DNA of 64,000 nt from an uncultured Planctomycetia bacterium (GCA_964373805.1 CAYJWF010000003.1:23001-87000); one strand, 5' to 3'. Counted from the stretch's first letter, positions 26,931 to 54,816 are shown. Notes: generated from the letters alone by a model not told the origin. Translations and numbers: made by a program.

Positions 26931-28190
26931 TCACTCCTCCCTTATCTCTTCGGAACGTAAGATCTGAAGGCTCAAGCCAACCGCTAAGCCGGAGAGAACC
27001 CAGAAGAGCGTTGCTTGTCTTAAGGCGTAAAGGTTGGTATCAAAGATAGACTGGACCAGAAATGCGGCTATTCCCGCAACGAGCCCCAGGAGAAATAATC
27101 TCAAGTCCGGTGGAGCAGGTTTTCGAAGGGCCTTATTCCACACCATAAAAAGTGAACCCAAAAATAGGAGAAAACTTATTAAGCCGAGCAACCCCGTTTC
27201 TGCAGTAATCTGGAGAAGACAGTTATGGGCATAGGCAGGTCCGTTATTCGGAACATCGGCATAGTCGAGGTAATTTGCCATAAAGGTATTCAGTCCATGC
27301 CCAAGGAATGGCCTGTCCTGGATCATACGCCATCCCACTTTCCACATAACGTGCCTTTCTTGTAGACCGGCGTCTGAGAAAGCCAACATCTCGAAGAATT
27401 GGCCCTTTCTGAAGAATAAGACGGCTGAGCTCATGGCTAACGCAACACTGAGGCCGATTCCTACCATTCTTTTTCGTGAATAGATCAACAGAAGAGAAAG
27501 TCCAGCCCACAGACCAATCAGGGCTCCCCTCGAAAGAGTCCAGGCAAGGCATCCCAGAATAAGAAGCCCGCCTAGCCACCCGCTAATCCGAGTCTGTTTG
27601 GGACGACTCAGCAGATGAGCAAGCATCACAAGACCCACGACCATCAGAAAGGTGGCGAGGTCATTCGGGTTCTCATAGGGTCCTACCATTCGAGAATAGA
27701 CCAGCGCTCTATCCCGGATCGGGTCGCGTCCGGCGACCTGCTGTATCACCGCGTAGATCCCAACTAACCAGGCAGCGCCGAGTAAGGCCCGAAGGCTACG
27801 AGGAGCTACTGTAGGGTGGTCGGCTATCTCCATCACAATGACAAAAAATAGAAGATACTCGGCTGTTTTTCGAACAAGAGCTTGGATGCTGAGGAAGGGA
27901 TAGGTGCTGTAAGATACCGACCAGATGCAGACGCCCAGATAGGCGAACAGAGTGAATAAGATGGCCTGATTCGGCACGGATTTTACTAGGAGGGGCTCTT
28001 TCCTCCCAGGCCAATGCCATCCGATTAACCATGACACGAGCAGGAGCGGAAAGAGGATCTCGATCCCTGCCTTGGAGAACGGTATAACCCATAGAAGGCT
28101 GTAGAGAAGCCCACGAGCTATCCTTTGCATCCGGGGGGGTAAACCGTAGTTATTAACTTTCCCTCTGGGATCTAAATTCTCCCTGCGCAA
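26931..28190 (-). CDS. O-antigen ligase family protein (WaaL/Wzy_C domain)
   Basis: ~10 TM helices. Conserved periplasmic loop AHNCLLQITAETGLLGL and the upstream SRGAL motif. Alternative start at internal ATG ~28130. Confidence 0.7.
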   Translation of the reverse strand: MRRENLDPRGKVNNYGLPPRMQRIARGLLYSLLWVIPFSKAGIEILFPLLLVSWLIGWHWPGRKEPLLVKSVPNQAILFTLFAYLGVCIWSVSYSTYPFLSIQALVRKTAEYLLFFVIVMEIADHPTVAPRSLRALLGAAWLVGIYAVIQQVAGRDPIRDRALVYSRMVGPYENPNDLATFLMVVGLVMLAHLLSRPKQTRISGWLGGLLILGCLAWTLSRGALIGLWAGLSLLLIYSRKRMVGIGLSVALAMSSAVLFFRKGQFFEMLAFSDAGLQERHVMWKVGWRMIQDRPFLGHGLNTFMANYLDYADVPNNGPAYAHNCLLQITAETGLLGLISFLLFLGSLFMVWNKALRKPAPPDLRLFLLGLVAGIAAFLVQSIFDTNLYALRQATLFWVLSGLAVGLSLQILRSEEIREE

Positions 28191-29961
28191 GAGTACCGAC
28201 CACCTTCCAACTCAGGCCGTTTTCCTCACAATAGCCCTGAATTTGTTGAACAAGATCTTCGGGTGGTTGGCGTATGGCGATGAGAACTTCCCGAACGCCG
28301 AATTCCTGTACGACCTTCCCTAACCCCTGACGAGATCCGATGATCCGAATCCCGTGTATGCTGTCTCCCTGCTTGGTGAGATCGTCATCCAAGAAGCCAA
28401 CCACCCGATACTTTCCTGAACCGGCTAACTTCAATTGTTGAAGCAGGAGTTCCCCGGTGTCACCGGCTCCGACAATAAGAACGGGAATACCCCCTTGAAT
28501 GGAAGAGGTGATCCATTCGTTTAAGAGCGGTTCTATGATTCTCGCCCCGCTGACCGCTACGAACAGGAGAAGGCCATCAATAACAAAAACAGCTCGGGAG
28601 TACCCCTCAAAGCGCCACAGGTACAGCACGACGAGGGCCGAAAAAACGGACCCAACGATAACCGCTCGAAGTATGTTGGTCAGATCGGGTAGGCTGATGT
28701 ATCGCCACACTCCTCGATAAAGCCCGCACGAGAAGAAGCAGATCATCTTTACGGCAATGATCCAGGGAAGGGATCTTAAGATGAGAATTTCCAGATCCGG
28801 AGTGAGGGTCGCTTCGAACCGCAGCGCATGGGCGATGACATAAGAGGCGCAGATCAGTGCAAAATCCACGCAGACTTCCACGAGTCGCCGTTTATGCATC
28901 AGCATCGTTTCGATAAAGGCAACGCGTGATCCCATTACGGACGAAGAAACCCGTGTGTAAACGCGGACCTTGGCGAAGTAAGCTCCGATGACGAAGAGAA
29001 GTCCCGTGGCCAATATGGAGATGCCCGTTAGGGCCATGGGCTTTTGTTTGGATAACAGAATACTTATCGCCCCGCAGGAGGCGGTAAAGGCATAGAGGGC
29101 GAAAACAACCTGACGGGGGGTCAACCCAAGAATTCCTAACCGGTGGGAGAGGTGATCTGTGCCTCCTTGGAATGGATGCCGACCATTGAGAAGTCTTTGG
29201 ATGGTCACAAAACAGGTGTCGAAGATCGGCACCGCCAGCAAAAAGGTAGGCAGGGCTAAGATTCCCGCCAGGCGTGCTGGCTGGTGCCAGGTGCCCATCA
29301 AGGCGAGCGTCCCCAGACCCAGCCCTAAAACCTGGCTGCCCGTATCTCCCATGAAGATCTTTGCTGGCGGAAGGTTGTATCGAAGAAATCCTAATGTCGC
29401 TCCGCCCAAACTCGCAGAGATAAGGGCAACCAACCACTGTTGGGTCTCAAGGGCATGCCAGGCACAAAAGCTTGCCGCAATGACGCCAATCCCACCGGAA
29501 AGTCCATCCATGTTGTCCATCAGGTTAAAGGCGTTCATGACAAGAACAAGCCATCCGATGGTCAACGGAATGGTAAGCCATGGGATCACGATGTCGGCTT
29601 GGATGCCTGAGACAACGACGAGACACCCTGAAAGAATCTGAACAATCAGTTTCGAATAAGGATGGAGCCTCCGGAGATCGTCTACAAGTCCAGCAAGCAA
29701 CATGAGCACCCCTCCGAGCATCAGGCCGATCATCCGGGGATCCTTGTGGATTGCCCATCCAACGGCTGCCAAAAAGCCCAAGGCGATTGGAAGGCCGCCG
29801 AGACGGGCAACGACTCGGCGACCCCATCGATCTTGAGAGGGACGAGAAACACATCCGATGGAGATGGCAACTGTCCGTACCAAAGGTGTCAGGAGGATGG
29901 AAAAGAGGTAGGCTCCACTGCCTATCAACAAGATCTGTAACAGCGATGCGGCCAGCGTCAT
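28153..29961 (-). CDS. polyprenyl-phosphate N-acetylhexosamine-1-phosphate transferase (GT4 MraY/WecA family) fused to a C-terminal TM + Rossmann (CoA-binding-like) module
   Basis: N-terminal ~350 aa carry the WecA/MraY motifs DDLRRL, NAFNLMDNMDGL and IFMGDTGS. C-terminal ~250 aa carry 4 TM helices then IPVLIVGAGDTGELLLQQLK...YRVVGFLDDD. That resembles the N-terminal domain of WbaP/CapD-type enzymes but lacks their catalytic domain. Confidence 0.7.
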   Translation of the reverse strand: MTLAASLLQILLIGSGAYLFSILLTPLVRTVAISIGCVSRPSQDRWGRRVVARLGGLPIALGFLAAVGWAIHKDPRMIGLMLGGVLMLLAGLVDDLRRLHPYSKLIVQILSGCLVVVSGIQADIVIPWLTIPLTIGWLVLVMNAFNLMDNMDGLSGGIGVIAASFCAWHALETQQWLVALISASLGGATLGFLRYNLPPAKIFMGDTGSQVLGLGLGTLALMGTWHQPARLAGILALPTFLLAVPIFDTCFVTIQRLLNGRHPFQGGTDHLSHRLGILGLTPRQVVFALYAFTASCGAISILLSKQKPMALTGISILATGLLFVIGAYFAKVRVYTRVSSSVMGSRVAFIETMLMHKRRLVEVCVDFALICASYVIAHALRFEATLTPDLEILILRSLPWIIAVKMICFFSCGLYRGVWRYISLPDLTNILRAVIVGSVFSALVVLYLWRFEGYSRAVFVIDGLLLFVAVSGARIIEPLLNEWITSSIQGGIPVLIVGAGDTGELLLQQLKLAGSGKYRVVGFLDDDLTKQGDSIHGIRIIGSRQGLGKVVQEFGVREVLIAIRQPPEDLVQQIQGYCEENGLSWKVVGTLAQGEFRSQRES

Positions 29962-31781
29962 GTACGCCGAAACAAATGGGTAATCCCGTGTACGGAGGAG
30001 TACAGGAATAGACCGAAGCCGATAACCCCAATAAAACGAAAAGGTTCCGCGGAAAATCGGCCGAAACGCCAGAGGGTTTTTTGACTTTCCAATGGATAAT
30101 AGACGACTAGGCCGTTTGTGAGAGTCCCCTGGCTATCCAGGGAAAAAGCGCGTCGGATTCGAAGGTAGGAATTTCCAAGCCCGTTGTTGTAAAGATCCGT
30201 CCGTTCCTGAGGGCTAAGGAGCCGCCTCCAGATGCTGACCTCATCAATGCAGCCGTTCATATAGCCCCCGCCCTCGTGGAAATTGGAGAAACGGCCAATC
30301 GTGAACTCGAAAGGGCTGTCGTAGCTGGTTGTCTCCGGTGGCATCGTGGCCGTATCGATGGAGCCATTGTTAACCTGTATGGAGAGGGTATTCGGATCTA
30401 TCCCACTTGTCTGGTACCAGGCCACGATATAGTACCAAGTTCCAGTAGCAGGAGCACTAGAGTTGTAAGAACCAGTGGCCCAGGAGTTTAAACCGTTGCC
30501 TACCGTAAACTCAAAGACGTCCTGGCTGGGGCTGTAGCGTAGTAGATACTCATTAGAATGGGTCTTACTCGAATCTCCTTTGCTGGCGAAAATCATCTCC
30601 TCCTTGCTCTCTAAATAAACCCAGGCTGCCACCGTAAAGTCGACGTCCCCCATGCTGAGCTTCGGATTGTCTGGAGTACTGAGATACTGTGCTTCAGTCC
30701 GAACAAACTTAGCCGTTTTGCCTACTTTACCATCCACTGAGGTGACGTTGTTATGGTTCACAAGTTGGGTTTCACCATCACCCGGGTGGCTGGCGTCCGA
30801 AAGATTGGGCAGTGTCAAGAGCTGTGCCTTCCACGGATTTTCCTGGAAGAACCTGGCCTTCCAGCCTCTGTCTTCTGCGGCAGCGACCCAGACAATTTGG
30901 GGGAAGGCTGTTAAGGTGCTGGGCCAACGCCAGCTTTCCTTTCCGGCGGAAGCGACGAGGATAACCTTCTGACGAGCGGCATAGGCCGTCGTTTCCACCA
31001 AGCTTTGGGAGGCCCACCAACCTCCAAAGCTTAAGTTGATCATTTGAACTCCCTGCTTGACGGCGTAGGTAATGGCTTCGCAGATGGCTGCGGTCGACAG
31101 CCACGGACCGGATCCCACCCGTAACGGTAAGAAGAACAATTCCGTTTCCTCTGTTCCGGTGAGGATGGAAGAGATGACCTCGCTTCCATGAGATTTAAAA
31201 GCCCCTTCCCCACGGGGATCGGGGTCCCGTCCGTAAAAATCGTAACCCTGGAAATCATCGATGTAGCCGTTCCCATCATTATCGGTCTGATCGACTGGGA
31301 TTTCGCCGGCATTCTTCAGCAGCCGATCCGATAAGATGGGCTGCGTCAGATCAAAACCAGAGTCAATCACGGCTATGGAAAATCCTTTGCCGGCCGCTTG
31401 TCCAGTGACGATCGCTGATCCTTTGGTATCCACGGTGTGAAAGAAGGCTGTTAACTTGTAGTTCGGCTCAGCGTATACGACGGCCGGATAGGTGCGAAGA
31501 TGTTCGAGAACCTTCGCCACGGGTATCGACTGATTGAAGCTAACCAAGTAGAGTCCCCAGGGAGCGATTTCGCGCTCAATGGAGATATGGACCTCCTCTG
31601 TAATCTTTTTAAGTTGGGATAAGGGCGTTTCCAGATCAAACCTGACTAAGGCCTGCCCCGGCAGAAAATCCGGAGAGGCTTCCTCAATCCTTGCCTCTGC
31701 CGGGCAATCCTTCGCGTTTAGGATTTCCATGCAAAGGCAGATTGCGACGAACCAGAATACCCTACGGCTGACCATACACAC
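29958..31781 (-). CDS. secreted subtilase-like (S8) protein with degenerate active site, LamG/ConA-like lectin domain and C-terminal hydrophobic anchor
   Basis: Signal peptide. S8 Asp (AVIDSGFD) and His (HGSEV) regions and INLSFGG are present. The oxyanion Asn position reads SAGK, and no GTSxA serine segment was found. Instead a LamG-like domain follows (DVDFTVAAWVYL...IDEVSIWRRLLSPQERTDLYNNG). C-terminus AEPFRFIGVIGFGLFL...RRT resembles a PEP-CTERM-type sorting signal. Confidence 0.6.
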   Translation of the reverse strand: MCMVSRRVFWFVAICLCMEILNAKDCPAEARIEEASPDFLPGQALVRFDLETPLSQLKKITEEVHISIEREIAPWGLYLVSFNQSIPVAKVLEHLRTYPAVVYAEPNYKLTAFFHTVDTKGSAIVTGQAAGKGFSIAVIDSGFDLTQPILSDRLLKNAGEIPVDQTDNDGNGYIDDFQGYDFYGRDPDPRGEGAFKSHGSEVISSILTGTEETELFFLPLRVGSGPWLSTAAICEAITYAVKQGVQMINLSFGGWWASQSLVETTAYAARQKVILVASAGKESWRWPSTLTAFPQIVWVAAAEDRGWKARFFQENPWKAQLLTLPNLSDASHPGDGETQLVNHNNVTSVDGKVGKTAKFVRTEAQYLSTPDNPKLSMGDVDFTVAAWVYLESKEEMIFASKGDSSKTHSNEYLLRYSPSQDVFEFTVGNGLNSWATGSYNSSAPATGTWYYIVAWYQTSGIDPNTLSIQVNNGSIDTATMPPETTSYDSPFEFTIGRFSNFHEGGGYMNGCIDEVSIWRRLLSPQERTDLYNNGLGNSYLRIRRAFSLDSQGTLTNGLVVYYPLESQKTLWRFGRFSAEPFRFIGVIGFGLFLYSSVHGITHLFRRT

Positions 31782-34767: not shown

Positions 34768-36041
34768 CGAAGTGCCCTTTTTTGTCTCATGAACCAAATT
34801 CCGGAAAGTCGACCTCTTATCCACCCTAGGCTTATGGCAGCGAACAAGAGCAGGACCGGTTCTACCAGCCACCGGTGACGGCCATCCACGTAGTAAAGGC
34901 TTTGATAGGCGGCGATCGAGGATGCGTAAGCCAGAAGAAGAAGTAACGGTGTGTTCCTCCACTGTCGGCGTAAACGCCAAAATCCCGCCAGGATCAGGGT
35001 TCCTACAACGCTATAGTACCACCGGTACCAGCGGGAATAGGGAGGAGGATATTTCAAGCCGGCTTGTGGGGCGAACCACCAAAAGGTCTTCAGCTTCTTC
35101 CCATAGAGGCGGAGGGTCGAAAGCGGGTGGTCTTGGATAAATCTCCAAGCCTCTTGTTGGAACAACCGACTTTGGCCACCCTCGTCCAACTGGGAGAGCT
35201 GGCGGTAAAATGCCGGCGAGGCCGTGCTCAATACCGTCCTACCATCGGGTAGGTGAGCGGATCCGGATGCAAGGGGGTTGTTTCCCTGCCAGAAAGATTG
35301 GCTGGCCGAGGTGATAACGATGGGAAAGCGGTGGAGACGCAAGGCATTGCGGATAAGCCACGGGGTTACCAGGACGCCGGTAGTAAATCCCATTAGCCCC
35401 AAGAGTGCCAGAGTTTTCTGAGGCCGATCTCGAAATTCCCAGTAAAACCATCCGGTGGCCAATAGCAGAAAAGGGATGATGGTTCCTCTGGACAGGAGGG
35501 CAAAGCCGCTTGCGAGTCCAACGTGAAGAGCCATGACGCCCGTAGGTTCTTGCCGGAAACGCAACCAGGCCCATAAGACCCAGAGAAAAGCAAAGTGATC
35601 CAACGTCAGGGTATGGAGAAGACTCGAATAAAAAATTAAGGGAGGATGAAACGCCACCAACCAAGCTCCCGCGTCTGCCGCGTTGGGATGGGCTGGGAAA
35701 ACGTGATTTCCAATGGCGCGCACCTGAAGACAGGCGGCGGCGCTGATCAGACACTGGAGGATCAGCAAGGCAACCTGATGATGATGGGTCAGGGCGTAGA
35801 CGGCGGCACAGAAGAGGGGATAGGCGGGCAATAAGAAGGCACGGTAAGGTACACCGAGATGCTCAATGACAAACCCCTGCCCGGCTAGGAGGTTATTGGC
35901 GATGATCTCCATTTCTAAGGGAGTTGGATTGAAAAAATGCCCCAGCTGCCAGCCGACGACTAGTCGAATCGCAAAAGCTGTCAGGAAAAGAACAACGGTC
36001 TGTGTAACGGTGGACTTCGCTTGAGCGGGGATTGGATTCAT
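34764..36041 (-). CDS. polytopic membrane protein, GT-C/ArnT-like glycosyltransferase or polysaccharide polymerase candidate
   Basis: 425 aa with ~10 TM helices. Aromatic/His-rich loops. Family is not identifiable by eye. Confidence 0.45.
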   Translation of the reverse strand: MNPIPAQAKSTVTQTVVLFLTAFAIRLVVGWQLGHFFNPTPLEMEIIANNLLAGQGFVIEHLGVPYRAFLLPAYPLFCAAVYALTHHHQVALLILQCLISAAACLQVRAIGNHVFPAHPNAADAGAWLVAFHPPLIFYSSLLHTLTLDHFAFLWVLWAWLRFRQEPTGVMALHVGLASGFALLSRGTIIPFLLLATGWFYWEFRDRPQKTLALLGLMGFTTGVLVTPWLIRNALRLHRFPIVITSASQSFWQGNNPLASGSAHLPDGRTVLSTASPAFYRQLSQLDEGGQSRLFQQEAWRFIQDHPLSTLRLYGKKLKTFWWFAPQAGLKYPPPYSRWYRWYYSVVGTLILAGFWRLRRQWRNTPLLLLLAYASSIAAYQSLYYVDGRHRWLVEPVLLLFAAISLGWIRGRLSGIWFMRQKRALR

Positions 36042-37084
36042 GGGTGTGCGGCACGCAAGAGGGAACGCATCCGATGAACGTAGGTATGTTCCTTTAAAAC
36101 TCTGGCCCTGCCCCGTTGCGCGATGCGCGCCCGCTCATCGGGGTGGCGAAGGTAATATTCCGCCAAATCCTTGGCTTCTTCAGGAGAATGGTAGGCGGCA
36201 ATCTCCTGCTGGGGTTCGAGCAGCTCCTCCATTCCGGGAACGGCATCCATCAGTTGGAAAGCTCCCGTTGCCAACACCTCGAAGGTACGCAGATTCAAGC
36301 CGGCCTCATGGGTTTGATCGGAATGGATGTTCAGGCAGATTTTCGCGGCGCTGTAAATTCTGGCTGCGACGGTATCGGGGATGAAGCGTGAACTGCGGAC
36401 AATCAACCGCTGTGCGGGAAGGAGCAATCTGCGTGCCTCACCGCTGGTCCAGCCCCGCCCCCAGATGCTCAGGTCGAGATCGCAGAGGGCCCGAGCCATC
36501 TCAGCGCGCTTGGGATAATACCACGCGACCAAGGCGACGTCACAAGCGTAGCGCTTCTTTTCCATTCGACTTAATACCTGAGGTCGGTAGATGTTTTCAT
36601 CGCTGGCACAGGGTAGAAACTGGACATTGGGAGCACCTTCTGCACGGAGTCTGGCCATGTACGATCGATCGAAGATGAAGAAGATATCGTAGAGGGGTAA
36701 AAGGTCCTTCACCGGTTTTCGGAACGGGTCGTCGAGCCACCAAGTCAATAAGGGGCATCGAGCCAGGGCCTTCATCGACTGAACGACGTTTACCGAGAGG
36801 GAATGTCCCCAGAGGACCAGGATAAGATTGGGTCGTATCTTCGCAACGGTTCGAAGGAGCCTTTGGTCTCGAGCTTCATGCCAGTGGGATCTCCAGCGGT
36901 CAAGCCACTCGGTCAGTCCCGGAAGGGTAGGGGCGAGGGATCGAGCCCTGCGAAGCGTGAACCTGTCTAACGACAAACTCGTGGAGTAAAAGACTGAAAC
37001 CGACTGCCCCAACCGCTCGAGTGCCCGCGTGGTGTAGGTCGCCCACGGCATAAACAACGATGGAGCGATAAGCAATATGCGCAT
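36038..37084 (-). CDS. glycosyltransferase, CgeB-like / GT-B (Glyco_trans_1_2-type C-terminus)
   Basis: C-terminal region ICLNIHSDQTHEAGLNLRTFEVLATGAFQLMD is typical of CgeB/spore-maturation-type GT-B proteins. Confidence 0.55.
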   Translation of the reverse strand: MRILLIAPSLFMPWATYTTRALERLGQSVSVFYSTSLSLDRFTLRRARSLAPTLPGLTEWLDRWRSHWHEARDQRLLRTVAKIRPNLILVLWGHSLSVNVVQSMKALARCPLLTWWLDDPFRKPVKDLLPLYDIFFIFDRSYMARLRAEGAPNVQFLPCASDENIYRPQVLSRMEKKRYACDVALVAWYYPKRAEMARALCDLDLSIWGRGWTSGEARRLLLPAQRLIVRSSRFIPDTVAARIYSAAKICLNIHSDQTHEAGLNLRTFEVLATGAFQLMDAVPGMEELLEPQQEIAAYHSPEEAKDLAEYYLRHPDERARIAQRGRARVLKEHTYVHRMRSLLRAAHP

Positions 37085-37093
37085 AAGGAGAAA

Positions 37094-39220
37094 CTATGAG
37101 GCCGCGCCGACTGAGGCGTGGCCGGGGGTTGAACCCTTTGGCATAAGCGGGTGGCCCCTACGAGGGAAAAGGTCAGAGGTTATTAGAAAATCGTATAACG
37201 TGCTACAGGGGTTAACCTCCGAGGAATAATAGAGACGTTCCAGCAGGTCTGGCCAGCGGTTCTTTCGTTCAAGGACCCCTCCCTCTTCCTGGATGCATTT
37301 CGATAGGGCCCAGCGCAGGCTTTCTGCATCCTGGAAAAAGAACACACCCTCTTCGATGTCCCACATGGGCGACTGATCGTAATGCCTAGCGGTGTCGTAG
37401 ACAATCGGCATACTGCCGAAGGCGATGGCTTCTATTCCCACCGAGGTCGTGCCCGTAATGGTGGCTCGCGATGCGCTCCATAGATTGGAAGACCACGACT
37501 CGACCATGCCGTAGCGATGGAATCCTTGCCTTGCTGCAATCGTCGCTGCCTCTCGACGGACCGGACAGAGGGGATGATCCTTGATGAGAAAAAACGTTTT
37601 CGGAAACGCCTTTCCGGCCTCGAAGGCAAGCCTCAGGATGGCCACTGAATCGGTGCGAAGAAAGGTTGTTGCGATCAACACCGGCAGGCATCCCTTTGGG
37701 AGGTCGATGTCCCACTGTTTTAGACCATCTTCGAACTGGTGGCCTTGCCTGGCCAGGTGCCGGGGATGTCCTAGGCGAACCGGTCCAGTGAGTACCACTC
37801 GCTTCGGGGCCAGCCGTTCCTGCAGAATGTTCAGCGTCGTCTTCCCATTGACAGCAATCAAATCAGGCAGTGGTGCTAATCGCGGATTCCGGTCACCACC
37901 ATTTTGACGAATCTGGCCCCGGGGAAATCGGTAACCCAGGTGATTCTGACCGGTCAGACCCGTCTGCAGGCCAATGACCGGAACGCTTGGCTGAGCAGAT
38001 TTTAACCCGGCCGTGAAGGCTCTTTCCGTTGGTTGATATTCGAACGGGATGGTCATACAGCCGATGTTTCCCAACCGCGCGGCTAACCGACGGATGGCCT
38101 CTGCCGCACATAAATTAAAGGGGATCTCGGGACTCTGAATATCGTGCTCTATTTCCCTCATCAGTAAAGGGCCGACTTCAATGCCCCTGAAGTGAGCCGT
38201 CCGTTTTCGGCCTCTACGCCAGGATTGATAGGACCGTCTGCAGCTGTTGCCAAAACAGAAGCGCAACAGCTCCAGAAAGGTTAATTGGGATTCGAGCAGA
38301 ATGATCCTGGACTTGGTCATCTGACGACGCATCTGCCTTGACAGGAAAAGGATTTTGCCGGCATGGGTCATGGTCGTCGCCGCAAATACGGGGGGGTATC
38401 CATGGTCTTCCAGAAACTTCGGCCACTCACCAAACGATCGGTTGTGCCACTGTCCTGGCTGACGGAATTCCCACATCGATGGAAACAGCGTACAAAACAA
38501 GGCCCAGGACCGGGCAGGCGGTGGGACCCCACCGGCAGAGCCCGGTGCACCTTGCTCTGGCCCGGTTGGGGCGACATCCCGAGCAACCACCTTGCCTATG
38601 CCGGTGAGTCGCAGAACAACCCATCGTAAACATTGTTGCAGGCCAAACCACCATCGCCTGAGCCATGGGAACTGGCTTAAGGATTGGCGCAGTGTTCGCC
38701 GTCGTTTAGCCCGAATCACCCCGTCCAGCCGCGCGTTATAACGCTGGGCAAGCTGACGAATCGCTGGCACAACTGCAAGATCATCGGTTAAGAGCGTTAC
38801 CCGCTTAGGTCGATGCTCAGCCAATACTTGATCGATGATCTGTAACCGGTAAAGAAGATGAATCAGGGGGGTACGCATCGGACTCATCTCAGAGATCGGC
38901 ATGAGCCACCAAACGCCAATTTGACCCCGCCAGGTCCAAAGATCCCAAAGGCCATTTTCCCTGACGAATCGGTCGAGAAAGGGAGGGTACTCTTGGCGTA
39001 TTCGCCGGCGTGCTTCTTGTGCATAAGGAGTGGGTGAGATCCATCGCGCTCTGTCTCCAATCTCTTGAGGGATACCGTCACCCGCTTCCAAGGACGAAAA
39101 TTCCAACCATTGGACGGTGCATCCGTCTCTTTGCAGGGCCTGGAGGGTACGAAGGCGACTTCGTTTCGACTGCGCTTGCTCTGTCAAGCCGATAAAGAGA
39201 ATTTCTTCCCCGATTTTCAT
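37094..39220 (-). CDS. hypothetical protein, paralog A of a three-member family (putative transferase)
   Basis: 708 aa, unrecognised family. Shares an N-terminal EILFIG motif and a central IPFEYQPTE...VPVIGLQTGLTGQNH block with 46633..48471 and 61727..63808. Confidence 0.5.
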   Translation of the reverse strand: MKIGEEILFIGLTEQAQSKRSRLRTLQALQRDGCTVQWLEFSSLEAGDGIPQEIGDRARWISPTPYAQEARRRIRQEYPPFLDRFVRENGLWDLWTWRGQIGVWWLMPISEMSPMRTPLIHLLYRLQIIDQVLAEHRPKRVTLLTDDLAVVPAIRQLAQRYNARLDGVIRAKRRRTLRQSLSQFPWLRRWWFGLQQCLRWVVLRLTGIGKVVARDVAPTGPEQGAPGSAGGVPPPARSWALFCTLFPSMWEFRQPGQWHNRSFGEWPKFLEDHGYPPVFAATTMTHAGKILFLSRQMRRQMTKSRIILLESQLTFLELLRFCFGNSCRRSYQSWRRGRKRTAHFRGIEVGPLLMREIEHDIQSPEIPFNLCAAEAIRRLAARLGNIGCMTIPFEYQPTERAFTAGLKSAQPSVPVIGLQTGLTGQNHLGYRFPRGQIRQNGGDRNPRLAPLPDLIAVNGKTTLNILQERLAPKRVVLTGPVRLGHPRHLARQGHQFEDGLKQWDIDLPKGCLPVLIATTFLRTDSVAILRLAFEAGKAFPKTFFLIKDHPLCPVRREAATIAARQGFHRYGMVESWSSNLWSASRATITGTTSVGIEAIAFGSMPIVYDTARHYDQSPMWDIEEGVFFFQDAESLRWALSKCIQEEGGVLERKNRWPDLLERLYYSSEVNPCSTLYDFLITSDLFPRRGHPLMPKGSTPGHASVGAAS

Positions 39221-40149
39221 TGTGGGTCTGACGAGGGAGGGGATGTCTGGGGGGAAAGGCTGTTCATCTGCTCATGTATTTCCTCCAGACAATCCAGCAA
39301 TCCTTGCCCCATATCCAGGTAATAGTGGCTGACCAGCTTCTTCGCGATTTGAGGCCGAAAGGTATACGGAGTGACGGTATAGTGCGGGCTTTTGCCTTCC
39401 CTCTGTTGCGCAGGGTCGATGGGGCGAAACTCCACAAGGACATCTGACCCGACGATCTCTCGGATCATCTCCAGCAGATCTCGAACACGCAACGGATGAT
39501 GACCGGTTAAAACCACGTGTTCGTTCCGAAACGCAGGTTCAAGAACTTGCACGCTGGCACGAGATACATCGGCAACGTGGACGTACTCTCGCAGCTCATC
39601 GCCGGTACCCTGGAGGACCATGCGTCGGTCTCTTAAGGCCTGGATTAAATACTGTCGCACCCCATTGTCACTATCGGCTCGTCTTCCATAGATAGATCCG
39701 TAACGCAGAATCGTGTAATCGAGGCCAAACCATCGTTGGTACTCTTCCACGTAGAGTTCACAAGCTTGCTTGCTTGCCCGATAAAATCCGCCCGAATGTC
39801 CAGAGACATAGATCGTGCTGGCAAAGATGTATCTTTTCAGAGACGCGCGACGCGCCTCTTCCAAAAGAATGGCATTGCCCAAGATATTGTTCCGGACCGT
39901 CTCAACGGGATGTTCCTGTGCCTGATCGAGATCGGCAAGGCCTGCAAAATTGTAGGCGACCTCTTGTTTCTCCAGGATTCGCCGGACGGCTGCAGCATCC
40001 AGGATATCCCCCTGGACAAACCTTTGTCCCTGCCTCAAATAGGGAGAAGGCCTTAGGTCATAGATCGTCACTTCATGGCCTGCCTCCAAGAGTGCATCCG
40101 CTACATGACTTCCGAGGAAGCCGGACCCGCCAAACACAACCGCTTTCAT
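39217..40149 (-). CDS. NAD-dependent epimerase/dehydratase (SDR)
   Basis: VFGGSGFLGSHV and YRASK motifs. Start at internal ATG (MKAVVFGG) at 40149 in ATGA overlap. Track ORF extends to 40302. Confidence 0.7.
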   Translation of the reverse strand: MKAVVFGGSGFLGSHVADALLEAGHEVTIYDLRPSPYLRQGQRFVQGDILDAAAVRRILEKQEVAYNFAGLADLDQAQEHPVETVRNNILGNAILLEEARRASLKRYIFASTIYVSGHSGGFYRASKQACELYVEEYQRWFGLDYTILRYGSIYGRRADSDNGVRQYLIQALRDRRMVLQGTGDELREYVHVADVSRASVQVLEPAFRNEHVVLTGHHPLRVRDLLEMIREIVGSDVLVEFRPIDPAQQREGKSPHYTVTPYTFRPQIAKKLVSHYYLDMGQGLLDCLEEIHEQMNSLSPQTSPPSSDPQ

Positions 40150-40937
40150 TGTTCTGCTGCCTTCACGACTTGTCCCGTGTTCTCCAAGGCTGGTTTGACT
40201 CCGTGGGCTTTTAACCAGAACTCCACCAATGGAATCTGCCATTCGTAGTCCACATCGAGGCCCCCCCATTGCCTGAGCGGCCAAATTTTCTGTCCCATCC
40301 ATCTTTGCGGGAGCAACCCGCTCTTTAGATTTTCGAGGCAGCGTGGCCTGACGACAGACACTCCCATGTCTGCAAAATAGACATCCCCTTGCGAATCCCT
40401 GTCACAGCTTAAAGTGGTCGGATCTCCCCAGGCCTCAAACGGTACGAATGGATGGAGCAAACCGTCGGAGCCTAGTCGGCGTGCTCGGGGTGGACTCCAC
40501 ATGTTATAGACCGACACCGATACCGCAGAATCAATCTCTGGGCGTTTTCTAAGGACATCCACTCCTTCATCAATTAATGCCGAGGTAACCGTCGGGGCGT
40601 TGCAGAACAATAACACCATCAGCTCCAGATGCTTCCCCTCAGCCATCAGCTCATTACGGATGATCTGGTAACCGTGGACAAAGGCCTCTTCGCCTAGAGC
40701 TTCTTGAGTAGCCAGATGAGGTGGTCGATCGAGGATTCGTGCGCCGTATTGAATCCCAATCGCCTTGATGAGGTCAGAATCCGTGGACACAAAAACGCGA
40801 TCTACGCTCCGGGCCCCTTGTGATGCCAGCAGAGGATAAACCATAAGGGGGCGGCCAAGGATGGGAGTGAGATTCTTTCCCGGAAACCCCCTGCTTCCTT
40901 CCCGGCCTATAAGGAGCGCACAGATCATAGCTCTCAT
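40146..40937 (-). CDS. acylneuraminate (nonulosonic acid) cytidylyltransferase family protein (CTP_transf_3)
   Basis: ICALLIGREGSRGFPGKNLTPILGRPLMVYPL matches the NeuA/PseF/KdsB N-terminal glycine-rich nucleotide-binding motif. ATGA overlap at 40937. Confidence 0.7.
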   Translation of the reverse strand: MRAMICALLIGREGSRGFPGKNLTPILGRPLMVYPLLASQGARSVDRVFVSTDSDLIKAIGIQYGARILDRPPHLATQEALGEEAFVHGYQIIRNELMAEGKHLELMVLLFCNAPTVTSALIDEGVDVLRKRPEIDSAVSVSVYNMWSPPRARRLGSDGLLHPFVPFEAWGDPTTLSCDRDSQGDVYFADMGVSVVRPRCLENLKSGLLPQRWMGQKIWPLRQWGGLDVDYEWQIPLVEFWLKAHGVKPALENTGQVVKAAEQ

Positions 40938-42955
40938 CCTTCTTCGGAAAGCGACCGCGCTAACCCGATCGAGAAAGCCTCCATCAAATCGGGAGGGCCA
41001 AGCGTGACTCGGATGCAGTTGGCCAAACAAGGGGAATCAAAAGGCCCTTTAACCAAATAGCCGTGATAACGGAGTCTTTCTACTAATTGCGATGGGTCAC
41101 AGCGGCCTGCAACGCGCAGCAGCATGAAGTTCGTGTGGGTGGGCAGAGGAATCAACCCTAAGGCCTGGGCCCGTTTCGCCAGCCATTGTCCACCTGCTTC
41201 GACTTGGGCGACATAGTCGTCCATGATCTGAGGCTGCTTGAGGAGTTGACCTAGGCACATAATGGCTATGCTGTTGATATCATGGACTGACCGTACCTTA
41301 GAAAGATGGCTCATGACTTCAGGGTGTCCAGCAGAAAAGCCGATCCGTAGGCCTGCCAGTCCGGCTGCCTTGGAGAAAGACCGGATCGCCACCAGATGAG
41401 GGAATCGTTTAATCCAGGGAAGTATCGTGGTACGAGAGAATGGATAGTAGGCTTCATCAACCACCAGCAAGGCTCCTACCGAGGCTGTCCGATCAGCTAA
41501 CTGAAGCAGAACATCTTCCCCTAAGAGAGTTGCCGTTGGCTGGTTCGGGTTAGCGATCATGACCAAACGGACTCCTTCTGACACGCTACGGACCAATTGC
41601 TCGCCGTCCAGTACAAGGCTTTCGTTAAAGGAGATCTTCCGAGCCTTTGCATGAAACATCTGTGCATAAACCTCGTACATCGCGTAACTGGGATCCAGCA
41701 TCACCACGGTATCCCCTGGCTGGACGTAGGCTTGATAAAGGGCCTTAATGGCGGCATCGGATCCTGCCGTTAAGAGAAGCTGCTCTTCTGGGATGCCAAG
41801 CCATGCGCTCAACTGTTGGTAAAGCCCATGGGTGACGGGGTAATGGGTAAGCAACCGACTATGAAAGGATTGGCGCAGGGCGGTCATGAACTGTTCGGGT
41901 AACGGCTGCTGTCGCTCATTTCGATTCAGCCGGATGAGATTCTCCTGGGCACTTGGCTCCGGAGTCCGGTACAGCCCACTTAATCCAGGTACCGGCAGTG
42001 GGAGGGTCTTGGGACTCTCCACCGGAACGGGACCGGTTTCTGAGAACTTTGTGGCAACAGAAAAGATGGTATCGCAAAGCCAACGGGTTTTCAGACATCG
42101 GGCATATTCTTGATCGAGTTTCCAGTCGAATAGGTGGCTGTACTTGCCTTTCCCTCCCGGCTGTCCGGTGAGGAGCCAATGGATGTGATTGGAAAGATCG
42201 TAACGTTGCTCGGGAAACATTTTAAAACGAAAACCGGCCTGTTCCAAAACCCTGGCTAGCGTCCTGTGCGAGTAGTTGAAATAATGGGCCTTCTGCCAAT
42301 AGAACCGGTCGAAACTTTCCAGTTGGTAGAATCGCACTAAGGCGTCGTCTACGTTGGGCACTTCCATCGCCAACAGTCCCCCAGGCTGAAGCATATCGCG
42401 GAATTTGGCCAAACTTCTAACCGGTCTCTGCAGATGCTCGATCACATAGTAGGCCAGGATGAGATCAAAGCGTTCTTTCGCCACCTCATAAAGATTCGAA
42501 ACCGTCCGGATTCCCCGCCGATTGGCGTAATCCGCATAAAGCTTACCAGGTTCCACGCCAGTAATCGATGCCACGTAAGGCTCGACGGCAGCCAGCAGGA
42601 AACCGGTTGAACTTCCAATCTCAAGGACTCGCATGCTTGAACGCAGGTACGGCTGCAAGTGAACCAAACGGCGTTTTGCCTCCGCTTGGTTTTTCTTGAA
42701 GTGCTCTTCGGGCTCTGTCTCGCCAGGTCCTCCCCTCTCCTTCATGTAGTGCGCAAATTCAGCGCTGTAGAACTGCTTCTCCTCCTCTTCCATCATGGTC
42801 GGATGAATGAAGACAATCTCACAGGCGCTGCATCGACAGACAAAGGACCCGGGCATTCCCCAGACGGTATCGGCGATGCGATAGCGTGTTCCCCCATCTT
42901 GACAGAGCGAACATGGGATATCGACCTTGGGAGCCGTGTTGCTCCAGTTGGGCAT
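40934..42955 (-). CDS. bifunctional fusion: Zn-ribbon SAM-dependent methyltransferase (N) + class I/II PLP-dependent aminotransferase (C)
   Basis: N-terminus has CSLCQDGG...CRCSACEI then LEIGSSTGFLLAA motif I and LILAYYVIEHL. C-terminal ~370 aa has VVDEAYYPF and the SFSKAAGLAGLRIGF PLP-Lys motif, as in histidinol-phosphate/aspartate aminotransferase-like enzymes. Confidence 0.7.
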   Translation of the reverse strand: MPNWSNTAPKVDIPCSLCQDGGTRYRIADTVWGMPGSFVCRCSACEIVFIHPTMMEEEEKQFYSAEFAHYMKERGGPGETEPEEHFKKNQAEAKRRLVHLQPYLRSSMRVLEIGSSTGFLLAAVEPYVASITGVEPGKLYADYANRRGIRTVSNLYEVAKERFDLILAYYVIEHLQRPVRSLAKFRDMLQPGGLLAMEVPNVDDALVRFYQLESFDRFYWQKAHYFNYSHRTLARVLEQAGFRFKMFPEQRYDLSNHIHWLLTGQPGGKGKYSHLFDWKLDQEYARCLKTRWLCDTIFSVATKFSETGPVPVESPKTLPLPVPGLSGLYRTPEPSAQENLIRLNRNERQQPLPEQFMTALRQSFHSRLLTHYPVTHGLYQQLSAWLGIPEEQLLLTAGSDAAIKALYQAYVQPGDTVVMLDPSYAMYEVYAQMFHAKARKISFNESLVLDGEQLVRSVSEGVRLVMIANPNQPTATLLGEDVLLQLADRTASVGALLVVDEAYYPFSRTTILPWIKRFPHLVAIRSFSKAAGLAGLRIGFSAGHPEVMSHLSKVRSVHDINSIAIMCLGQLLKQPQIMDDYVAQVEAGGQWLAKRAQALGLIPLPTHTNFMLLRVAGRCDPSQLVERLRYHGYLVKGPFDSPCLANCIRVTLGPPDLMEAFSIGLARSLSEEG

Positions 42956-45873: not shown

Positions 45874-46675
45874 TGGAAGCTCCCTTAAATTGCGGATGAA
45901 GATGTCCGTACCGGTAAGGGTAGCAGGCTGCTTCTTTAAAACCCCGATCCGACAAGAAGGTTCGAACCAAAGAAGATTGAGGATGGGCCTCGTCCAATTC
46001 TACTAAAAGGCTCTTTACGCTCCGGAGGCTCCCTTCGGCGCCCTGAAGGATAATCAACTCGGTTCCATCCACATCCAGCTTTAGGTGAGTTGGGGCGGGC
46101 AGCTTAAATTGCTCAACGAGGGTATCCAGGTCAAACGTTAATACAGCCGCGCTCGCGGCAGGATGAAAATCCCTGCCCCGGTAATCCTTCGCCTCGCCCA
46201 AGGCATGCAGGGCGCCTCCCGGCGTCAGATTCGCGTAATGAAAAGTGTCCAAACCTGTGGTGTTGGCCAAGGCAACGGGCAATGGCGTTACCCATCGTTC
46301 GAATCCGTTTAACGTCAGATTCGAGAGTAAACGGGCAAAATTGAATGCACTCGGTTCAATCGCCACAACCCGGACGAGTTCCTTCCAGTAAGAAGCGGCC
46401 ACCAGCGTGTAGGTTCCCACGTTTGCGCCGATGTCGTAGAAGACATCCCCCTTTTCCATCTCGCGTTCAATCCAGGCGACCATCTCCGGTTCCTTGCGAC
46501 AGGCATGTAACCGAGTGTGGTATTCCACTTCCGAGGAAACCCCTAATCGGATGGCGTGTCGATCGTAATCGAGCAGCCCGATGACTTGTCCCGGAAGGCC
46601 CAGCCGAAAATGAAGCTTGGCAGAAACACGTCTTAGATACCTGGAGATCGCTTCCACCATCGGTTTCCTAGACAC
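45848..46675 (-). CDS. FkbM family methyltransferase
   Basis: FYDIGANVGTYT motif diagnostic of FkbM-type O-methyltransferases. Confidence 0.7.
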   Translation of the reverse strand: MSRKPMVEAISRYLRRVSAKLHFRLGLPGQVIGLLDYDRHAIRLGVSSEVEYHTRLHACRKEPEMVAWIEREMEKGDVFYDIGANVGTYTLVAASYWKELVRVVAIEPSAFNFARLLSNLTLNGFERWVTPLPVALANTTGLDTFHYANLTPGGALHALGEAKDYRGRDFHPAASAAVLTFDLDTLVEQFKLPAPTHLKLDVDGTELIILQGAEGSLRSVKSLLVELDEAHPQSSLVRTFLSDRGFKEAACYPYRYGHLHPQFKGASNVLFHRNG

Positions 46676-48471
46676 CCGTCGCTCTGCAGGGCTATTTCTT
46701 CTGTGAGCCTTTTCGTCCAGTCATCCAGCCAGTTTTTCTTTTCACGCGCGTAGCGATCCACAAAAATGCTTCGGGCCTGTTGGATCTCTTGGCCTCTCCA
46801 CCACAGCTCGGGGTCATGACAAATCGCCTTGACCTTGACCGCTGCCTCTTCAGGTGAATTCCACAGGATACCAGCGCGACGGAGTTCTTCGAAATAAGGA
46901 ACGGCTTCATCTCGTATCTCCCACCTCTGAGGATCCCAGAACATCACTGTCGGAACATTCGCTGCCAAGATTTCTAAAAGGGGAGTGGATAAATGGTCAA
47001 CGACAACGAGACGGCTTTTCCGAAGGCTCCGACAAAACGGAGTGCCATTGCCGTCCCAACGCAATTCGGGAAACTCTGTGGAGTACCACTCTCGGAGCTT
47101 GTGCCCAAAGTGATGCCGATGGGGCCGAAAAAGGATAAGCGCACGCAGCGGATTGGGAAGCGCTCTTAAAAAACGAAGTTGCCAATCAAAATATTCCTGG
47201 AGCTGTGTTCCTTGGGGCGAAGAGTAGAAGCGGTAGAGATATCGAGGATTGGTTGTGGCAACAAAAAGGACACCCCGCATCTTCTGAGGATCCCGATGGC
47301 CCAGCCGATTCGTCAAGGAAGAAATTTGGAGAGAAGGTACGTTCTGCAGGTGTCCCTTCTTCTGATCGGCCCATCCCCATACGAGAAAAGAGTCCGATAC
47401 ACAGCGCTCATGTTGTTCCATCGGGGCCGCACGGTAGATCCCGTATCCGCCTCCATGTTGAACAGCGACCAACCGGCGTCCTTTTAGCTGGGCCTCCGCG
47501 GCCAGGAATTTGAACGGTTCGTTAAAATACCAGCCGTTTCCCGATACAATTACAGACGGAATTCTAGGGTTTTTTCTAAGCAGCTCCTTATGGGCTTGAT
47601 GGAATCCTTCACAATAGAGGGTCGGGAAATTCTTTGGCAGGGAGTTCACAAAGACAGATTCGAACCCGTTGACTGTAGGAAGTGCGGCAAGCCCATTCCG
47701 GCGGTGGTCAAAGATCGGGTTCCACGTGGTCTGGGTCCATCCACCCCTTGGCTTTAAGGGCAGGGCTCGCAGGCCACTGCGCCAGGCCAGGGTCCATGCC
47801 GTGATGCTGGAAACAGCGAGGTCACAAAGAGCGACCTCACATCGGCGACTCAAGAGTCCTTGGGCAACGTCCTCTAGCTGGTCAAGGCTCCGCCGGACTG
47901 CAACCTTTACCCAACCGGATCCAGCGGCTCTCAGCGTGGGCTTTTTCTTCACGGCCCAGTCGGGTTGCAGCTTTTGAGCTGGAAAGAAAAGCCCCATGGC
48001 TTGGAACAATTGAGAAAAGATCTGAAGATTATACGGATCCTCCCGGATGGAATCGATGTACTCCGATGTGTCCTGGGGGACATGGAACGATTGAGGGTCC
48101 AAAACAATCGTCTGCCATTTTGGATATTTATCGTAGGCCTCTAGGAGATGCATGTACCTATCGTAGGCAGCGTGAAGATAGTGAAAGAGCCATGGCCCTA
48201 CGAGTATCCGCCAATACCGACGATTAAAGCTCACTTGATGAACCCCGTTCAAGTAATCGCTCAAGTCAACCAGCATACGCTCATAGCATTCCTCGAGATA
48301 GCGGGTCGCGTGGAGGTGCCGGCTTCGATCATCCCAAGGGCTTGGCATCACCCGATACCGAAGAGGGTTCCACTCCGAGCGCCTGTCGTATCGAAGACAC
48401 CAAGAACCCAGGAAGAGGATTTCTTGGTTCTTATCCCAGAATTGGCTCAGCGCGGTTGTTGCCAGAAACAT
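46633..48471 (-). CDS. hypothetical protein, paralog B of the three-member family (putative transferase, LIC12162-like?)
   Basis: 612 aa. N-terminal EILFLG and central PSVIVSGNGWYFNEPF...RLVAVQHGGGYG block align with 37094..39220 and 61727..63808. Confidence 0.5.
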   Translation of the reverse strand: MFLATTALSQFWDKNQEILFLGSWCLRYDRRSEWNPLRYRVMPSPWDDRSRHLHATRYLEECYERMLVDLSDYLNGVHQVSFNRRYWRILVGPWLFHYLHAAYDRYMHLLEAYDKYPKWQTIVLDPQSFHVPQDTSEYIDSIREDPYNLQIFSQLFQAMGLFFPAQKLQPDWAVKKKPTLRAAGSGWVKVAVRRSLDQLEDVAQGLLSRRCEVALCDLAVSSITAWTLAWRSGLRALPLKPRGGWTQTTWNPIFDHRRNGLAALPTVNGFESVFVNSLPKNFPTLYCEGFHQAHKELLRKNPRIPSVIVSGNGWYFNEPFKFLAAEAQLKGRRLVAVQHGGGYGIYRAAPMEQHERCVSDSFLVWGWADQKKGHLQNVPSLQISSLTNRLGHRDPQKMRGVLFVATTNPRYLYRFYSSPQGTQLQEYFDWQLRFLRALPNPLRALILFRPHRHHFGHKLREWYSTEFPELRWDGNGTPFCRSLRKSRLVVVDHLSTPLLEILAANVPTVMFWDPQRWEIRDEAVPYFEELRRAGILWNSPEEAAVKVKAICHDPELWWRGQEIQQARSIFVDRYAREKKNWLDDWTKRLTEEIALQSDGCLGNRWWKRSPGI

Positions 48472-54788: not shown

Positions 54789-54816
54789 CTTTACCTTCTG
54801 CTGGAGGGTGGAAGGA

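Follow-up and report, generated by a model that had tools for sequence, protein, structure and literature searches.

Three large putative glycosyltransferases paired with CMP-sugar synthetase genes in a surface-glycan cluster of an uncultured Planctomycetia bacterium

Only a handful of the enzymes that attach pseudaminic acid (Pse), legionaminic acid (Leg) and related acids are known, namely Maf, the BFO_1060 type of Tannerella and KpsS1 of glycosyltransferase (GT) family GT118. New families of ulosonic acid transferases are still being founded, GT118 in 2024 and GT140 in 2026 (PMC12887879), and the transferase of the Bacillus subtilis spore crust is still unidentified (PMC7439481). In Tannerella forsythia, deletion of BFO_1060, Tanf_01245 or TFUB4_00887 strips the terminal Pse or Leg derivative from the O-glycan, and these transferases are GT-B/TagB-like proteins in which an HP motif of the conserved C-terminal region has been proposed to bind cytidine monophosphate (CMP) (PMC5420450). 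Meanwhile, LIC12162- and LIC13510-type proteins also occur in pathogens, among them Leptospira and clinical Herbaspirillum; in the Herbaspirillum annotation, neuABC-type genes are directly followed by genes for a 'surface carbohydrate biosynthesis protein' and for a LIC12162 transferase (PMC6679464). Here we describe three large proteins, P1, P2 and P3, encoded in a surface-glycan cluster of an uncultured Planctomycetia bacterium, and compare them with these systems. They lie in a stretch of 64,000 nucleotides (GCA_964373805.1 CAYJWF010000003.1:23001-87000), which was analysed as a whole and is called the window below.

The window is nearly all one minus-strand gene array, and the surface-glycan cluster, which starts at about 13 kb, takes up all the rest of it (about 50 kb). 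The three open reading frames (ORFs) are co-directional and were all found intact, exactly at the coordinates given by an earlier reading of the DNA without database searches (the sequence-only reading): P1 at 37094-39220 (minus strand, 708 amino acids, ATG start), P2 at 46633-48471 (minus strand, 612 amino acids, ATG start) and P3 at 61727-63808 (minus strand, 693 amino acids counted from a GTG). Each of them can be aligned over its whole length with homologues found in other samples, and we therefore regard them as intact genes. In the public gene call, P3 begins with the methionine at 63748 and has 673 amino acids, and this ATG is likely the true start; P3 residues are numbered here on the 693-residue version.

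The sequence-only reading took the three proteins for paralogues, saw no obvious GT-A or GT-B signature in them and proposed them as candidate transferases for nonulosonic sugars. We find three separate families that are remotely homologous in their core, a predicted GT-B fold for P1, and a CTP_transf_3 cytidylyltransferase gene near each of the three, in modules that are kept in other phyla. The proposal that they are candidate nonulosonic-sugar transferases remains the best available reading, with a chance of being right that we put at about even, and it is supported by the P1 family, which is remotely similar to the BFO_1060 family (PMC5420450).

Family membership and remote homology

No match to Pfam-A was obtained for P1, P2 or P3 at E<=1. 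Membership in an NCBIfam family was defined as a score at or above its curated cutoff, which is 225 bits for TIGR04331, 250 for TIGR04326, 100 for TIGR04417 and 200 for NF046086. P2 scored 483.9 bits against TIGR04331, the LIC12162 model, over model positions 1-585 of 585, and its precomputed annotation carries PF27859 ('LIC12162'). By these profiles P2 is a bona fide, full-length member of the LIC12162 family (TIGR04331/PF27859) of putative transferases. The LIC12162-type assignment offered for all three proteins was thus right for P2, but P1 and P3 gave no TIGR04331 match at E<=1 and are non-members.

P1 aligned with TIGR04326 (the LIC13510 family) at 81.9 bits (E 3.3e-23, model positions 19-579 of 602), and ten diverse relatives of P1 scored 38-88 bits (E 1e-10 to 1e-25). 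The alignments of P1 and several relatives cover nearly the whole model, but all scores fall below the cutoff. On these scores we place P1 in a large sister clade of TIGR04326 and not in the family itself. P3 matched TIGR04417 (PFTS-motif protein) at 22.6 bits (E 4.2e-5) over model positions 390-516 of 522. Four of its five relatives likewise aligned weakly, over the C-terminal 125 or so residues and at 18-33 bits, all short of the cutoff, and no literal PFTS string was found in P3. As judged by profile, P3 represents a rare clade that is weakly related to TIGR04417 and is not a member of it.

A word-indexed search returned 319 homologues for P2, 7 for P1 and 6 for P3, and the metagenome scan for relatives of P3 gave one locus only. 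LIC12162-/LIC13510-type proteins are widespread: the P1 profile alone matched 2103 cluster representatives at E<=1e-3 in an exhaustive search with hidden Markov models (HMMs). Uncultured Nitrospira, Omnitrophica, Anaerolineales and Elusimicrobia are the sources of their nearest relatives. With P2, a catalogued but uncharacterised family gains a new member, and the clades of P1 and P3 lie outside the current curated thresholds. A putative GT-B transferase in a nonulosonic acid cluster is in itself a known kind of protein, already annotated as such by NCBIfam.

Pairwise BLASTP among P1, P2 and P3 gave short chance-level segments only (best E 0.02, 0.4 and 0.15), and hhalign with shallow family alignments of 7, 37 and 6 sequences was uninformative (probabilities of 0.4%, 19.9% and 0.6%). 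A signal between the families appeared only with a profile of 135 P1-family sequences drawn from the 2103 cluster representatives. This deep profile matched the P3 family at 97.4% (E 1.1e-11, 264 columns) and the P2 family at 94.3% (E 9.6e-8, 205 columns), while reversed-sequence decoys reached at most 0.5% and non-GT-B Rossmann controls from the same window at most 4.4%. When compared with single sequences, it gave 96% for P3 (257 columns), 95% for an ordinary GT28-like glycosyltransferase of the window at 13392-14516 (153 columns) and 15% for P2. The region matched across families runs from a central block through the C-terminal domain; for the N-terminal halves the hhalign probability was at most 1%, with no homology detected. 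The profile comparisons point to a homology of P1, P2 and P3 that is real yet remote, at the level of a superfamily and covering the central block and C-terminal domain only. They would be distant members of one fold superfamily, in which P1 and P3 appear somewhat closer to each other.

What stands of the paralogy claimed earlier is this remote core homology; the three proteins are not paralogous copies and show no pairwise similarity. Three copies arising by duplication within the locus could account for the common size (about 600-700 amino acids) and strand of the three genes, and for an exact EILF[IL]G string in two of them. This origin is extremely improbable and we reject it: it is refuted by the BLASTP result, by the placement in three different NCBIfam neighbourhoods and by N-terminal halves that are unrelated at the profile level. 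In addition, each protein has closer relatives in other phyla (29-58% identity) than within the window.

The EILF[IL]G string had been described as an N-terminal motif common to the three proteins. It is present at residue 6 of P1 and residue 17 of P2 and absent from P3, which reads DIVLLQSVG instead. Two exact matches compare with 0.004 expected by composition in 29,137 residues; the string is not conserved inside the P1 family, and in the P1 model it lies on the first beta-strand (residues 6-12). We regard it as a strand-plus-glycine pattern, possibly a vestigial one, and not evidence of paralogy.

The central block fared better. The pattern as first written matches P2 only, but a relaxed form fits all three proteins (P1 395-420, P2 316-340, P3 375-399), and the block aligns in register across the families with the deep P1-family profile. 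In P1 (residues 386-420, IGCMTIPFEYQPTERAFTAGLKSAQPSVPVIGLQT; 37961-38065, minus strand) it consists of a strand (386-393), the motif E394-x-Q396-P397-x-E399, a helix and another strand, which ends in Q419, with the secondary structure taken from the model; E394, Q396, P397, E399 and A401 are conserved in at least 90% of 135 sequences. In P2 (residues 316-341, FNEPFKFLAAEAQLKGRRLVAVQHGG; 47449-47526, minus strand) Q338, G340 and G344 are invariant among 37 sequences, and GRRLVAVQHG, from residue 331, aligns with P1 412-421, residues 316-330 being outside the aligned region. In P3 (residues 375-399, YEPNSVMRTIVANHFGRATVGVHHS; 62612-62686, minus strand) the block aligns with P1 393-421, and Y-x-P, RTIVAN and HHSAN are invariant in six sequences. 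The block closes on equivalent residues, namely Q419 of P1 (conserved at 83% within its family), Q338 of P2 (100%) and H397 of P3 (100%).

Predicted fold and likeness to characterised enzymes

An AlphaFold2 model of P1 built from the 135-sequence alignment reached a predicted local distance difference test score (pLDDT) of 91.1 and a predicted template modelling (TM) score of 0.92. A first model, from 7 sequences, had a pLDDT of 58.8, and the fold search was made without it. Foldseek found 280 matches of the P1 model in the PDB at E<=1e-3, and the top ones were all GT-B proteins, with target-normalised TM scores of 0.5-0.67. Among these, uridine diphosphate (UDP)-GlcNAc 2-epimerases ranked first (NeuC 5xvs at E 8e-9, WecB and MnaA); further GT-B matches were GT20 trehalose-6-phosphate synthases (Tps1), LmbT and the TagF-like capsule polymerase Cps3D (8qoy). 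Searches of PDB sequences with the deep P1 profile retrieved a UDP-sugar 2-epimerase (8sxv, 3e-7), a GT28 diacylglycerol glucosyltransferase (9e-7), TagF (3l7i, 6e-5), KpsC (6mgb, 2.4e-4, over 86 residues), LpxB (4e-4) and TarL (0.02). The first five of these matches extend over the C-terminal domain and the linker between the domains. The same searches with the shallow P1 profile and with the P2 and P3 profiles returned noise only. The model and these matches to GT28, TagF, KpsC and LpxB indicate a GT-B fold for P1, contrary to the earlier statement that no such signature was obvious. P2 and P3 probably share this fold, given their hhalign matches to the P1-family profile over the central block and C-domain (94.3% and 97.4%).

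The P1 model also contains a long, confidently predicted helix rich in Trp, Arg and Leu (residues ~185-206, WLRRWWFGLQQCLRWVVLRLTG), followed at 207-238 by a low-confidence loop rich in Pro and Gly that is absent from homologues. Judging from the model, the helix may be a membrane-interface anchor.

The C-terminal Rossmann domain of P1 carries an 'HP'-type motif, K547-D-H549-P550 (37571-37582, minus strand), after its second strand. H549 is conserved at 98% and K547 at 77% within the family. This region aligns with the HP segment of the UDP-sugar 2-epimerase, whose alignment crosses the K-x-H-P stretch, and the TagF and KpsC matches contain it. Compared with the HP motif of bacterial GT-B proteins of the sialyltransferase type (GT38/52/80), P1 reads H549-P550, P2 has a histidine (H451) and P3 has an arginine. 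A second conserved element of P1, residues 586-608 (ATITGTTSVGIEAIAFGSMPIVY; 37397-37465, minus strand), comprises a strand and a helix of the C-domain and carries E597. Family-conserved positions coincide across the three proteins here as well: the basic residue is K547 in P1, R449 in P2 and R517 in P3, the HP-motif position is H549, H451 and R519, and the glutamate is E597 (95% conserved), E500 (95%) and E572 (100%).

The genetically validated nonulosonic acid transferases of Tannerella offer one comparison. Against ten diverse members of the P1 family, the BFO_1060 model NF046086 matched seven over the C-domain, with best E values of 1.5e-11 and 4.8e-10 and scores of up to 44 bits; among relatives of P3 there was one match (E 1e-3), and P2 had none. 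The homology between the P1 family and BFO_1060 appears remote on this evidence, and limited to the C-domain. As points of likeness, the Tannerella proteins are GT-B/TagB-like, have an HP motif in a conserved C-terminal domain and are encoded beside the CMP-Pse/Leg pathway (PMC5420450). They differ in having about 445 amino acids, and the N-terminal two thirds are unrelated.

The ranking of the structural matches suggests another possibility, namely that P1, P2 and P3 are GT-B enzymes acting on a nucleotide sugar, as hydrolysing NeuC/LegG-like 2-epimerases or PseG-like hydrolases, and thereby feed NeuB-type synthases. The top Foldseek and PDB sequence matches (NeuC 5xvs and 8sxv) are of this kind, relatives give weak NCBIfam matches to wecB, NeuC and PseG, and among the P3-module genes that were read there is a NeuB-like protein and no recognisable NeuC or PseG. 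However, UDP-GlcNAc 2-epimerases of the WecB/NeuC type are non-transferases of about 370 amino acids, and our proteins are some 300 residues longer, P1 with a long N-terminal extension. Epimerase_2 of Pfam gave no match at E<=1 to P1, P2, P3 or to members of the P1 and P3 families, and the BFO_1060 scores of the P1 family, at up to 44 bits, are far above those for wecB or PseG (16 bits). A PseG-like gene is already present in the P2 module, and P2 itself stands at the module end, downstream of the CMP-sugar synthetase, which is the position expected of a transferase. We consider such a role unlikely.

The matches to TagF (6e-5) and TarL (0.02) raise a further alternative, in which the proteins would be TagB/TagF-like phosphotransferases that use a cytidine diphosphate (CDP)-activated donor for a teichoic-acid-like or phosphodiester-linked decoration. 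The capsule polymerase 8qoy is among the Foldseek matches, six of 36 P1-family members weakly match Glyphos_transf (PF04464; best E 4e-4), and the P1 module, with its inositol-dehydrogenase-like GFO enzyme and HisC/CobD-like aminotransferase, usually has no NeuB. Like the CDP-alditol phosphotransferases TagF, TagB and TarL and the beta-3-deoxy-D-manno-oct-2-ulosonic acid (beta-Kdo) transferases KpsC and KpsS (GT107), the proteins appear to have a C-terminal nucleotide-binding domain of the GT-B type in which a basic-x-His-Pro segment occurs. The similarity of P1 to these enzymes spans only about 90-150 residues, though, and P1, P2 and P3 themselves match neither Glyphos_transf at E<=1 nor Capsule_synth (PF05159), for which one of 36 P1 relatives gave a marginal E of 0.085. 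The resemblance to TagF and KpsC suggested earlier is therefore one of distant GT-B superfamily kinship, seen with the P1 profile, without family membership. Moreover, the cytidylyltransferases encoded next to them are of the CTP_transf_3 (CMP-ulosonate) family, and NeuB-type synthases are found in the P2 and P3 modules. Enzymes that form CDP-alcohols, for example TagD, TarI and LicC, belong to families other than CTP_transf_3. A phosphotransferase function is, in our view, distinctly unlikely.

The suggestion of a Maf-like protein found no support, with DUF115 (PF01973) giving no match at E<=1 in P1, P2, P3, 36 P1-family members and six P3-family members. Among about 45 cluster proteins scanned, no match was obtained to the Pfam models for Maf (DUF115), KpsC/KpsS (Capsule_synth) or sialyltransferases.

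Gene neighbourhoods kept across phyla

The gene content around the three proteins provided the second line of evidence on their role. The window holds three CTP_transf_3 genes, at 40146-41030, at 51443-52078 and, as the C-terminal half of a fused gene, at 60337-61737, compared with three large proteins. The neighbouring nucleotide-sugar genes that had drawn attention to P1, P2 and P3 were thus confirmed for all three, and they are specifically of the CTP_transf_3 type.

In the P1 module, the CTP_transf_3 gene encodes a PseF/KdsB-like cytidylyltransferase (40146-41030, minus strand; Pfam and NCBIfam). A NAD-dependent epimerase/dehydratase gene lies directly upstream of P1 with a 4-nt overlap (39217-40302, minus strand), and a Glyco_trans_1_2/DUF3880 (CgeB-like) glycosyltransferase, recognised by domain match, lies downstream (36038-37084, minus strand). 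The module also holds the GFO enzyme. At 40934-42955 (minus strand), a protein of 673 amino acids fuses an S-adenosylmethionine (SAM) methyltransferase to a HisC/CobD-like class I/II aminotransferase.

A genome scan for relatives of P1, made with a 36-sequence alignment, gave nine loci (L002-L010) in metagenome-assembled genomes (MAGs) of Anaerolineales, other Chloroflexi, Elusimicrobia, Actinomycetes and Solirubrobacteraceae. The P1 relatives at these loci are 27-30% identical, and the order that is kept runs epimerase, (GFO oxidoreductase), methyltransferase-aminotransferase fusion, CTP_transf_3, epimerase, P1 and CgeB-like glycosyltransferase. Copies of the CTP_transf_3 gene that are 63-73% identical lie upstream of the P1 relative at seven of the nine loci (L002-L008), and L002-L005 carry a second copy after the first (36-40% identical); at L009 a CTP_transf_3 gene is present only downstream of the P1 relative and is a weaker one, and L010 has none. 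Upstream of P1 relatives, the epimerase is kept at 57-62% identity in L002-L005, L007 and L008, and downstream of them the CgeB-like glycosyltransferase is kept at 30-36% in L003-L005. The methyltransferase-aminotransferase occurs at all P1-family loci with an upstream flank, fused at some of them (L007 and L008) and, as it appears, present as separate genes at others. Across the Chloroflexi, Elusimicrobia and Actinomycetes MAGs, the cytidylyltransferase of this module is far more conserved than P1 itself. The core of the P1 module is formed by this highly conserved cytidylyltransferase, the GFO oxidoreductase and the methyltransferase-aminotransferase fusion, usually without NeuB.

The P2 module encodes a PseF-like CMP-nonulosonate synthetase (51443-52078, minus strand; TIGR03584, E 2.9e-28), a NeuB/PseI-type nonulosonate synthase recognised by profile matches (53769-54824, minus strand), a PseG-like hydrolase (52769-53764), a PIG-L deacetylase (52107-52772) and a PseC-like aminotransferase (56610-57638). 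Relatives of P2 that are 46-50% identical were found in three long metagenomic contigs (L014-L016), and in all three they close a gene set of NeuB, PseG-like, PIG-L, WbqC and radical-SAM genes. A PseF-like gene, 67-76% identical, lies upstream of the LIC12162 gene in each of the three contigs; in two of them it is either its direct neighbour or separated from it by a single gene. The combination of NeuB/PseI-type, PseG-like, PIG-L and PseC-like genes recurs upstream of LIC12162 in L014-L016 as well. P2 and its relatives thus alike end modules with NeuB, PseG-like and PseF-like genes.

Directly upstream of P2, a gene at 48431-50503 (minus strand) encodes a B12-binding radical-SAM, KedN5-like C-methyltransferase, which has a 45% identical copy in L014. 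Its occurrence in a Pse-like module hints at a C-methylated nonulosonic acid. Downstream of the LIC12162 genes, L014 (12375-17818) and L015 (11415-17779) carry HpcH/HpaI aldolase, HMGL-like, SIS and extra CTP_transf_3 genes, which may form a NeuB-independent route to another CMP-activated ulosonic acid. Unannotated proteins of 517-528 amino acids encoded downstream of the LIC12162 genes in these two contigs were matched by none of the three family HMMs.

In the P3 module, a GT2 domain fused to CTP_transf_3 is encoded immediately downstream of P3 with an 11-nt overlap (60337-61737, minus strand; Pfam), followed by a short NeuB-like protein of 247 amino acids (59575-60318, minus strand; profile matches). 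This protein lacks a SAF domain and matches part of the NeuB profile. Since a copy conserved at 64% identity is present in L011 (10869-11582), it looks like a distinct truncated NeuB-type family and not a pseudogene. At four of four loci, relatives of P3 (45-58% identical) lie beside a CTP_transf_3 gene, the GT2-CTP_transf_3 fusion or both, and NeuB or the short NeuB-like protein is encoded there too; the fusion is kept at 41-67% identity near P3 relatives in L011, L012, L013 and L017.

The GT2-CTP_transf_3 fusion is possibly a bifunctional synthetase-transferase and a rival candidate for the transfer of the nonulosonic acid (NulO). It leads to the alternative that P1, P2 and P3 are ordinary GT-B transferases using nucleoside diphosphate (NDP)-sugars, or scaffold or accessory proteins, and that the NulO is attached by another enzyme such as this fusion or the CgeB-like glycosyltransferase. 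The conservation of the fusion beside P3 relatives and of the CgeB-like glycosyltransferase beside P1 relatives is consistent with it, as is a relationship between P1 and P2 that is no stronger than that of P1 to generic GT-B proteins. The tight and specific synteny of each family with CTP_transf_3 across distant phyla argues for the opposite, as does the fact that the P1 family is remotely similar to a NulO transferase family that has been validated. To our knowledge, GT2 enzymes, which are metal-dependent GT-A proteins that use NDP-sugars, have not been found to use CMP-sugars. We judge this alternative rather unlikely.

The remaining cluster genes are consistent with the synthesis of a surface glycan. 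Two NeuB-type synthases are present (53769-54824 and the short 59575-60318), along with WbqC, two radical-SAM enzymes, one of them the KedN5-like B12 C-methyltransferase, and many methyltransferases, in addition to the PseG-like, PseC-like and PIG-L proteins. Downstream in the cluster there are an O-antigen ligase/Wzy_C-type protein, a WecA-type initiating transferase and heptosyltransferases. The gene at 28153-29961 (minus strand) encodes a WecA/MraY-type polyprenyl-phosphate sugar-phosphate transferase (Glycos_transf_4) of 602 amino acids with a C-terminal CoA_binding_3/PglD_N-like extension, and in the middle of the cluster, at 29958-31781 (minus strand), a subtilase (Peptidase_S8) combines a fervidolysin-like prodomain with a LamG/ConA-like domain.

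A proposed role in nonulosonic acid transfer

Based on these findings, we postulate that P1, P2 and P3 are three dedicated GT-B glycosyltransferases that use CMP-activated (non)ulosonic acids, a proposal for which we see roughly equal chances either way; confidence is higher for P2 and lower for P3. We infer the transferase step from the fold and the synteny, and from a NulO transferase family of validated function that is remotely homologous. The three proteins would be anciently diverged members of the GT-B superfamily, within the loose NCBIfam group annotated with 'surface carbohydrate biosynthesis'. Each would be the putative transferase of its own module, with the CTP_transf_3 enzyme of that module making the CMP-activated (non)ulosonic acid. 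They would act as soluble or peripheral cytoplasmic enzymes, in which the C-terminal Rossmann domain binds the CMP moiety. Contacts to CMP could be made by the basic residue and the His or Arg after the second C-domain strand (K547/H549 in P1, R449/H451 in P2, R517/R519 in P3) and by the conserved Glu of the following helix (E597, E500 and E572). The central block (ExQPxE ... Q/H), at the edge of the N-domain, would line the inter-domain cleft and supply acceptor-binding and catalytic residues. The sugar would be passed to a lipid-linked glycan, which may later be handled by the O-antigen ligase/Wzy_C-type protein of the cluster.

Several observations weigh against this proposal. UDP-sugar 2-epimerases, which are not transferases, head both the structural and the PDB-sequence matches of P1, and P1 itself scores 10.1 bits (E 0.3) against NF046086, far below the membership cutoff. 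In single-sequence comparison, P2 lies no nearer to the P1 profile than does the generic GT-B protein of the GT28 type. The histidine of the HP motif is a tyrosine in 65% of the LIC12162 family and an arginine in the family of P3. A GT2 domain fused to the cytidylyltransferase of the P3 module offers an alternative transferase. Most P1-family loci have no NeuB within 10 kb, and for this reason the P1 module may have a donor other than a nonulosonic acid. Finally, a literature search for the LIC12162, LIC13510 and PFTS families found one annotation-level mention and no reported experiment. The more specific view that the proteins form three separate GT-B families, each dedicated to a different CMP-activated nonulosonic or ulosonic acid derivative, including one donor from the P1 module, is advanced only tentatively.

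The function of P1, P2 and P3 remains putative, and what our analysis supplies is a confident GT-B model of P1 and a hypothesis at the level of residues. In the window, three such families are paired one to one with as many CMP-sugar synthetases. If the three families are indeed dedicated transferases, they would amount to up to three new glycosyltransferase families in CAZy. One bacterium would then be placing three distinct sialic-acid-like sugars on a single surface glycan, and some of these sugars would carry C-methyl groups added by B12-radical-SAM enzymes.

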